Shown: positions 20,957-21,875, counted from the first letter of the stretch. The stretch is DNA of 31,720 nt from Escherichia coli (GCF_003334385.1 NZ_QOWN01000053.1), one strand, 5' to 3'. Numbers and translations: made by a program. Notes: generated by a model not told the origin, from the letters alone.

Positions 20957-21202
20957 TCACCGGATTACCACATCCCACTCCGGCTCCTGCCATCTCAAAT
21001 CCGGTGAATCATTTCTCTCAGGAATAACCATTACGTCCTTTTCCCTTCGCTCCCTTTCTATCGCCATCACAGCCAATGCTGCAACCATGATGTATTTTTG
21101 TTCGTCGGTTCCTGTTTCATAACGACGCATGAGGGTAAACTCGGGGCGATCAGTAACCTCAATGATTTCGTTAATTTCTTTAATTTCGCGAGGAATATCC
21201 AT
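20957..21202 (-). CDS. Acidic small protein, function unknown (81 aa)
   Basis: MDIPREIKEINEIIEVTDRPEFTLMRRYETGTDEQKYIMVAALAVMAIERERREK... with AAGGAG SD 9 nt upstream; its ATG overlaps the ATG of the divergent gene at a CCATGG site. Confidence 0.4.
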   Translation of the reverse strand: MDIPREIKEINEIIEVTDRPEFTLMRRYETGTDEQKYIMVAALAVMAIERERREKDVMVIPERNDSPDLRWQEPEWDVVIR

Positions 21203-21875
21203 GGGTTTAGTCTCCTTTGATATCACATGCCCGCACTGTTTAAAAGAGCGAGCTGTTATTGAGGCATTTGCCGAAAAACAAATTGAAAAAACACCTTTTT
21301 TTAACGTCGCTTTTGTATGCAGAAGTTGTCATCGAGGAGGTGTTGCTATTGTTGAAATCCCATCAGACCACTATCACGGTCCCATGGCGGAAAGCCAGAA
21401 AAAAGACCTCGATATTCTGATTTCAGGAAATAGCCAGTACCGTTTCCGCAAGATCTATCCTGTGGTCAAAAAAATTACCGCACCAGAATATACGCCCCCG
21501 GTTGCAGACCGTACTTTTGTTGAGGCAAAAGAGGATTTACAGAGGAGGCGGTACGACACAGTGGTTATTCTTTGTCGCAGAGTCCTCGATATCTCCACGA
21601 AAAAACTGCTCGGCGATGAAGCAGGAAAAGAATCGCTGTCGCAACGTATTCAGATGATTTACAAAAAAGGCCTGATCACTGAACAGATGAAGGAATGGGC
21701 TCATATTGTACGAATTGATGCCAATAAAGCAGTTCATACAGATGAAGTTTTCACACCAATTGAGGCAAGCCAGATCCTGAGTTTTACCGAAATGTTTTTA
21801 GTCTACGCCTTCACTCTGCCTGCAATGGTGGAAGCCAGACGTGAACAAAAAAGATCAGATTCAGCCTCTATATGA
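21201..21875 (+). CDS. Zinc-ribbon plus DUF4145-like (possibly HEPN-like) protein, 224 aa; candidate single-gene defence/abortive-infection cargo
   Basis: N-terminal CPHC-x20-CRSC zinc-ribbon pattern; C-terminal ...EQMKEWAHIVRIDANKAVHTDEVFTPIEASQILSFTEMFLVYAF resembles the R-x3-N-x3-H core of DUF4145 as recalled. Opposite strand to flanking phage genes; own SD. Confidence 0.55.
   Translation: MGLVSFDITCPHCLKERAVIEAFAEKQIEKTPFFNVAFVCRSCHRGGVAIVEIPSDHYHGPMAESQKKDLDILISGNSQYRFRKIYPVVKKITAPEYTPPVADRTFVEAKEDLQRRRYDTVVILCRRVLDISTKKLLGDEAGKESLSQRIQMIYKKGLITEQMKEWAHIVRIDANKAVHTDEVFTPIEASQILSFTEMFLVYAFTLPAMVEARREQKRSDSASI

Follow-up and report, generated by a model that had tools for sequence, protein, structure and literature searches.

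A candidate RAZR-like RNase gene and a small-protein gene with overlapping divergent start codons form a conserved cassette in a lambdoid prophage and its relatives

A prophage that encodes an abortive-infection nuclease sensing conserved structural proteins of phages has to cope with autoimmunity, and to our knowledge only two solutions have been worked out so far, that of the Tha/Ith pair and the trigger-variant evasion of HepS. In phage 80alpha of Staphylococcus aureus, the HEPN RNase Tha senses tail proteins and is accompanied by the 66-aa inhibitor Ith (Rostol et al. 2024, PMC11087260). The two genes lie on opposite strands, form a noncontiguous operon and are expressed in a mutually exclusive manner (PMC11087260, PMC12288877); some staphylococcal phages keep only the inhibitor gene, as an evasion factor (PMC11087260). 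HepS, encoded by the Salmonella prophage Gifsy-1, is a single HEPN abortive-infection nuclease activated by a structural protein of the incoming phage (PMC13043305), and self-targeting is avoided by the prophage's own non-activating variant of the trigger, not by a partner gene or an antisense arrangement (PMC13043305). A third nuclease, RAZR (ring-activated zinc-finger RNase, the new name of PD-T7-4), is a zinc-finger and DUF4145/HEPN RNase with the catalytic residues R146 and H154; its triggers are phage proteins of ring shape, portals among them, its mode of action is abortive infection, and the zinc finger, which determines its specificity, varies more than the rest of the protein (PMC13017515). 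Excludons are oppositely oriented neighbours with overlapping transcripts, in which exclusive expression is achieved via polymerase collision and/or RNase III (PMC12288877); in the divergent excludons described, it is the 5' UTRs that overlap, spanning an intergenic region (ExcludonFinder, PMC12288877). Divergent overlaps between genes are the rarest class of prokaryotic gene overlap, accounting for 331 of the 14,958 overlaps in 58 genomes, with 57 of the 331 being shorter than 5 nt, and they are often mispredicted (PMC2174442).

The window analysed here, a stretch of 31,720 nt of Escherichia coli DNA, is a lambdoid prophage in which two genes start head-to-head on a CCATGG palindrome at positions 21199-21204. 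The plus-strand ATG (21201-21203) and the minus-strand ATG (the complement of 21202-21200) overlap by two bases, the A/T at 21201-21202, and the CATG core common to both start codons (21200-21203, both strands) was found in the same register in diverged loci. From the shared ATG, the plus ORF runs to a stop at 21875 and encodes 224 aa, and the minus ORF runs to a stop at 20957 and encodes 81 aa. The Shine–Dalgarno (SD) sequence of the plus-strand RNase gene, GAGGAA (21190-21195, plus strand; 7 nt from GAGG to ATG), falls within codons 3-5 of the small gene, and that of the small gene, AAGGAGA (21211-21217, minus strand; 9 nt from GGAG to ATG), falls within codons 4-6 of the RNase gene. In homologues of the RNase gene, GGA, GGAG or AAGGA was retained 6-9 nt 5' of the start. 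The window coordinates and ORFs thus bear out the overlapping start codons described in a sequence-only reading of this DNA, and the plausible SD that it assigned to each gene was also found. Since both SDs fall within codons 3-6 of the opposite gene, an mRNA carrying one ribosome-binding site (RBS) is antisense to the RBS and first codons of the other gene. The same reading had raised the possibility of fully antisense 5' regions that allow mutual antisense control; the geometry of that proposal stands, and the control itself would belong to the model discussed below.

The CCATGG hexamer was not enriched, as the window has 7 copies and 9.95 would be expected, and without enrichment the palindrome was dropped as a motif, conservation being limited to CATG. 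The flanks differed among homologues (tcATGgg, gcATGgg, tcATGgc and ccATGag) and the core alone was kept. Neither strand of the junction RNA folded better than shuffled sequence (z about 0). What goes beyond chance is not the palindrome, but the start of two conserved genes in one register in many diverged lineages.

The plus-strand gene (21201-21875) encodes a zinc-finger and DUF4145/HEPN protein of RAZR-like architecture. The zinc finger and linker occupy residues 2-100 (21204-21500), with Cys codons at 21228, 21237, 21318 and 21327, and are followed by the HEPN (DUF4145) domain (21501-21860), in which R171 (21711-21713) and H179 (21735-21737) are the predicted catalytic residues. The earlier label 'zinc-ribbon/DUF4145' was correct: the protein matched DUF4145 in Pfam (8.1e-9) and C10, C13, C40 and C43, which make up two CxxC pairs, were invariant in 27 homologues, as were R171 and H179. 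An AlphaFold2 model had a beta-strand N-terminal domain, and the C-terminal part has a HEPN fold. Like RAZR, the protein is about 220 aa long and has an N-terminal zinc finger with two CxxC pairs and a C-terminal DUF4145 domain of the divergent HEPN type; the R-x7-H spacing of R171 and H179 equals that of R146 and H154, which are catalytic in RAZR, and in both proteins the zinc-finger region is the most variable. The similarity to RAZR itself was nevertheless marginal. The PADLOC PD-T7-4 profile gave a weak match (E 0.0022), the family profile aligned marginally, across the catalytic motif, to the RAZR chain in PDB entry 9y9c (E 0.076) and RAZR was not retrieved by Foldseek. RAZR is also a single-gene system, and no head-to-head small partner was found for true RAZR relatives in IMG/VR. 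The large protein is therefore RAZR-like in architecture and only a distant relative, through a weak link that does not establish membership of the family. A candidate RAZR-like abortive-infection RNase is the best explanation for it, and its N-terminal zinc finger probably senses a phage protein.

The minus-strand gene (20957-21202), which has the same direction as the phage operon, encodes a protein of 81 aa that belongs to phrog_8371 (6.8e-56), a PHROG family that carries no function annotation. The core of the family alignment reads DRPEFTLMQRYE..QK..V.ALIGKLIEQDR. Pairwise differences per codon position were 0.355, 0.27 and 0.544, the third position being the most variable, and the median dN/dS was about 0.21. 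The AlphaFold2 model consisted of three helices, with pLDDT > 90 for residues 1-55. Given the conserved core, the codon-position pattern with the dN/dS and the confident predicted fold, the ORF is a real coding gene. The small protein had no match in Pfam, NCBIfam or PADLOC, no significant structural neighbour, no helix-turn-helix or other DNA-binding family and no detectable relation to any inhibitor. Its family is small, with 35 representatives at 50% identity among 1.8 billion proteins. The pair does not correspond to a type II toxin-antitoxin pair, as the genes are divergent and the small protein lacks a recognisable antitoxin domain.

Comparison of homologous loci supported both starts. 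All 27 DUF4145 homologues (34-71% identity) shared the N-terminus M-G/A-[LIM]-[LVM]-[ST], which precedes the first CxxC (CPHC) by nine residues, and M1 was an invariant column of the alignment. At least 15 diverged loci had an in-frame stop 4-26 codons upstream of the plus ATG with no other start between, which leaves the shared ATG as the only possible plus start in those loci, and the next in-frame Met of the plus gene, M86, lies beyond the zinc-finger cysteines C10, C13 and C40. For the small gene, the minus ATG in the +1 register was the sole start found in all lineages. An E. coli variant of the small gene that is not accompanied by the RNase gene was homologous from residue 3 and had a GTG start with its own SD upstream; its N-terminus (MNNKIN...) is bounded by a stop four codons further upstream. 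The identical 2-nt head-to-head overlap was present in RefSeq/PGAP annotation, both in Shigella phage 75/02 Stx (NC_029120, gp19/gp20) and in E. coli chromosomes, where WP_032144013.1 is paired with WP_001624507.1. Overlapping starts that are real, in a cassette that is conserved, are therefore very likely.

A second CATG is present 72 nt upstream, at window positions 21128-21131, where it encodes Met25 of the small protein on one strand and offers the plus ORF an in-frame ATG on the other. This site accounts for a plus ORF of 248 aa, the 245-aa call for the homologue P0019 and the annotation of phage PhiR5_2, whose GenBank record begins the small gene at Met25 and gives it 57 aa. Neither of the alternative starts at this CATG was conserved.

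The CATG register recurred in about 30 diverged phage lineages, including those of Klebsiella, Yersinia, Alcaligenes and Paraburkholderia, and persisted down to 32-37% protein identity. When IMG/VR was searched with the DUF4145 family profile, 51 of 80 DUF4145 loci had a homologous small ORF in this register. Searching in the opposite direction, with the profile of the small protein, yielded 61 loci, of which 53 had a DUF4145 gene in the register; the eight exceptions represented one E. coli lineage in which the DUF4145 gene had been replaced and the small protein was 91-93% identical to that of the window. Independent gene callers reproduced the 2-nt overlap in prophages of Klebsiella pneumoniae, in Alcaligenes (where the pair was 37 and 32% identical to the window's two proteins), in Paraburkholderia (59% GC) and in a metagenome contig (69% GC). 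In two more distant loci the caller had picked a later start, and the ATG of the CATG was in frame (MGMAYY... and MLIHSF...). The start codons were separated in only one pair, at locus L187, where CATGCATG at the junction (about 795-802) looks like a 4-nt duplication and places the start codons 2 nt apart; the DUF4145 gene of this locus is cut short ahead of the catalytic motif. The shared CATG was retained in all lineages whose pair is intact. Conservation of the overlap to about 32-37% protein identity is unusual, given that divergent overlaps are the rarest class in prokaryotes, and a literature search for conserved overlapping divergent start codons found no specific precedent.

The RNase gene was also found without the small gene (L027 and L046), and in two lineages the small ORF was truncated beside an intact RNase gene, indicating that a protein partner is not obligatory. 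A sister clade of RNases of 212 aa (L063, L066 and L068-L087; N-terminus MAM...) had no small partner. In this clade the RNase gene is inverted in the late region and stands head-to-head with its neighbour across a spacer of 33 nt or about 130 nt. By sequence the neighbours look like terminase small subunit genes, and a search for a hidden small-protein domain in them found none. On these comparisons, the RNase family does not universally require the small protein, and pairing is almost strict within one clade.

The shared start coincided with an abrupt break in nucleotide identity. Between phages with 98-100% identical small genes (L051 versus L064, L034 versus L038 and L060 versus L064), identity was 96-100% up to the start codon, fell to 40-65% over the first ~300 nt of the RNase gene, which encode the zinc finger and linker, and returned to 85-95% in the HEPN part. 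Because identity drops immediately after it, the shared start marks the sharp left recombination boundary of a hypervariable cassette composed of zinc finger and linker. The variability of this cassette agrees with the zinc finger of RAZR being its most variable part (PMC13017515). Between the window and the E. coli variant that has the small gene only, homology ended within 4 nt of the CATG. That variant belongs to an E. coli prophage lineage (L005, 3008-3568; L006; L104-L111) in which the small gene encodes 85 aa from its GTG start and is preceded by 300 bp of non-coding DNA and then by a gene for a 166-aa phrog_25397 protein. The small gene was alone in 12 of the 48 E. coli genomes with a match. 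Divergence of the small protein followed the HEPN domain (Spearman 0.72) and not the adjacent zinc finger (0.29); as evidence of an interaction this pattern was discounted, since replacement of the zinc-finger cassette explains it equally well, and it is ascribed to that replacement rather than to co-evolution.

In the window, the minus strand from 24980 to 21908 carries O-like, DnaC-like, DUF1627 and DUF977/Ren-like genes, after which come the small gene, an ORF6N anti-repressor gene and NinB. A HigB/HigA-like pair (about 20137-20902) and the DUF4145 gene (21201-21875) form two units that face the other way, on the plus strand. Within the early-right replication/nin operon, which includes the small gene, the DUF4145 gene alone is inverted. 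This lone inverted orientation was seen in annotated records, in gene calls and in ORF orientation in 50 loci, and in both of the main contexts (between replication genes and ninB, and in the late region after the lysis genes) the RNase gene was inverted and the small gene ran with the operon. The pair moves as a unit and occupies differing contexts, among them the nin region and, beyond the lysis genes, the late region. The extent of the two-gene cassette was placed at 20905-21896 (both strands) by comparison with phage PhiR12_3, which shares this segment and has different flanks (the match covered positions 6-997 of the query 20900-21950). A GC-rich hairpin beyond the small-gene stop (20915-20935, plus strand; -19.1 kcal/mol, z -3.05), which is terminator-like for the convergent toxin-antitoxin (TA) genes, forms the left edge of the conserved unit.

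The comparison thus adds four points to the sequence-only reading: the two-gene cassette, the candidate RAZR-like RNase, the conservation of CATG only and the recombination boundary.

By analogy, the closest working counterpart of this cassette is Tha/Ith. In both cases a prophage HEPN RNase (a candidate one here; Tha is triggered by phage structural proteins) is associated with a small protein (about 60-80 aa) whose gene lies on the other strand and physically overlaps that of the RNase; one of the two genes is the lone inverted member of an operon, and the small gene occurs alone in some phages. Expression is tied to the lysogenic or lytic state, which is known for Tha/Ith and proposed here. 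The two systems are not homologous in sequence, hhalign giving a probability of 0.14% for the small protein against Ith-1 and 0.6% for the RNase against Tha-1. The 80alpha genes converge, with a 3'-end overlap of 64 nt, whereas the window pair is divergent and overlaps at the start codons; in 80alpha the inverted gene is that of Ith, within the cI operon, and in the window it is that of the RNase, within the lytic operon. Inhibition has been shown for Ith and is hypothesized for the small protein of the window. HepS differs from the RNase of the window in having no zinc finger. As in a noncontiguous operon, one gene of opposite orientation is nested in a co-directional operon, with the overlap of transcripts being deduced from the geometry. 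In contrast to the divergent excludons described, the pair has no intergenic region; its start codons overlap and each RBS is coding sequence of the partner.

The conserved layout suggests a built-in switch by which no more than one of the two proteins is made at a time. From the geometry, the RNase promoter would have to lie inside the small gene or beyond it, and a transcript reaching the small gene would first have to cross the whole RNase gene in antisense. It follows that the translatable mRNAs would be mutually antisense at their RBSs and that the polymerases would converge. Under the model proposed, the RNase gene would have been inserted backwards inside the lytic operon, with the small gene being part of that operon. 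In the lysogen, the lytic operon would be silent and the RNase would be made. On induction or infection, strong lytic transcription would pass over the RNase gene and shut it off through polymerase collision and RNA pairing, and the small protein would be expressed simultaneously and act as an inhibitor of the RNase or as a self-immunity factor. Reciprocal expression of the RNase and the small protein is, in our estimate, evenly poised between true and false, and the same holds for the model as a whole. The weakest step is the role of the small protein as a cognate inhibitor or self-immunity factor, which is suggested by analogy with Tha/Ith and, indirectly, by the pairing in 53 of 61 loci and the orphan small genes of some phages, and is tentative, being the less probable outcome. 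A stronger version, in which the three-helix protein would be a dedicated inhibitor of a new RAZR-like clade, serving self-immunity and evasion, and the shared CATG a selected either/or device tied to the lysogenic-lytic decision, is similarly doubtful; were it true, an abortive-infection gene directed at structural proteins, with a fast-swapping sensor cassette, could travel between mosaic phages without killing its carrier.

A consensus promoter scan of both strands of 20957-21300 found no sigma-70 site, and a relaxed -35/-10 scan of 23 diverged loci found no positionally conserved candidate. A recurrent TTGATC...TATCGT at about -105/-76 coincided with small-gene codons for DQK and QRYE and was inseparable from coding constraint. 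On the minus strand, a terminator-like hairpin followed by T6 is present at 21624-21596, antisense inside the RNase coding region. It could stop operon transcripts that are not antiterminated before they reach the small gene; its T run comes from a KK dipeptide that was not conserved in homologues.

Other explanations of the conserved junction were weighed against the reciprocal-expression model. In the main rival, the RNase gene would simply have landed against the start of an unrelated nin-region gene, with the overlap and linkage persisting although the two genes have no relationship in regulation or between their proteins. As each SD lies inside the other gene, almost any indel at the junction would kill translation of both, so that the embedding of the SDs in codons 3-6 of the partner is itself in keeping with such a locked arrangement, as are the position of the junction at a mosaic breakpoint, the occurrence of the small gene alone and of the RNase family without it, and the lack of any detectable relation between the small protein and an inhibitor. 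An accident of this kind fits less well with the carriage of the intact pair into unrelated contexts and across bacterial orders, or with the purifying selection on the small ORF in all of those contexts. Nor is the lock absolute, since one lineage separated the starts through the CATGCATG duplication, yet the CATG was kept in intact pairs. The transcripts would also be antisense by geometry, so that some interference is to be expected in any case. We consider this explanation possible but rather unlikely.

Another role for the small protein would be that of a DNA-binding regulator of the divergent RNase gene, acting through overlapping control regions. The divergence, tight linkage and co-inheritance of the pair are compatible with this, and the protein is small and predicted to be all-helical, but it belongs to no helix-turn-helix or other DNA-binding family that could be found, the pair has no intergenic region to hold an operator and the small gene is oriented with the lytic operon, so that it would be off in the lysogen while the RNase is presumably on; such a regulator is improbable. 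The least probable explanation is an annotation artefact, in which one start is wrong, as the sequence-only reading had allowed, or the 81-aa ORF is no gene at all, the DNA merely serving the RNase gene as promoter or 5' leader. The shorter, 57-aa version from Met25 in the PhiR5_2 record and the general rarity and frequent misprediction of divergent overlaps (PMC2174442) could be taken in its favour. The plus start is, however, fixed by N-terminal conservation and upstream stops, and conservation of the small protein begins at residue 1; the protein has a dN/dS of about 0.21 and a confident predicted fold, as well as an RNase-less variant that is homologous from residue 3 with an independent SD and a GTG just upstream. 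The comparative evidence thus rejects a wrong start, both starts being right, and the probability left to an artefact is very small.

At this locus a prophage defence gene stands in a noncontiguous-operon arrangement, the unusual start overlap persists across bacterial orders, and the small protein represents a candidate new family of inhibitors. If the reciprocal-expression model holds, the cassette would be a third solution to the autoimmunity problem, widespread in Proteobacteria and with a candidate inhibitor for the RAZR-like family. The junction is one of few divergent start-codon overlaps that are demonstrably conserved rather than mis-annotated, and its conservation makes it a clean natural system for the study of head-on transcription and mutually occluded RBSs. 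The identity break at the shared start shows where the zinc-finger cassettes that would determine RNase specificity are exchanged.

Three further observations concern the surroundings of the cassette. The 3' side of the small gene (window 20137-20935; also L003, L005 and L006) is a second variable slot, in which three inverted TA modules (HigB/HigA-like, RelE/HTH and TumE/HVO_A0114) end at the same GC-rich hairpin at 20915-20935. In Klebsiella prophages (L151, 786-1070) the cassette is located in a late-region accessory cluster together with an Acb2/Tad1 hairpin-domain gene (PF24729), Acb2/Tad1 being a known family of anti-defence sponge proteins. Finally, the DUF1627 protein encoded downstream of the DnaC-like gene (22355-23125, minus strand) matched the C-terminal regions of the CARF/Csa3/CasR profiles of PADLOC (best E 1.4e-6), possibly through a DNA-binding (winged-helix) domain common to both and not through a link to CRISPR.
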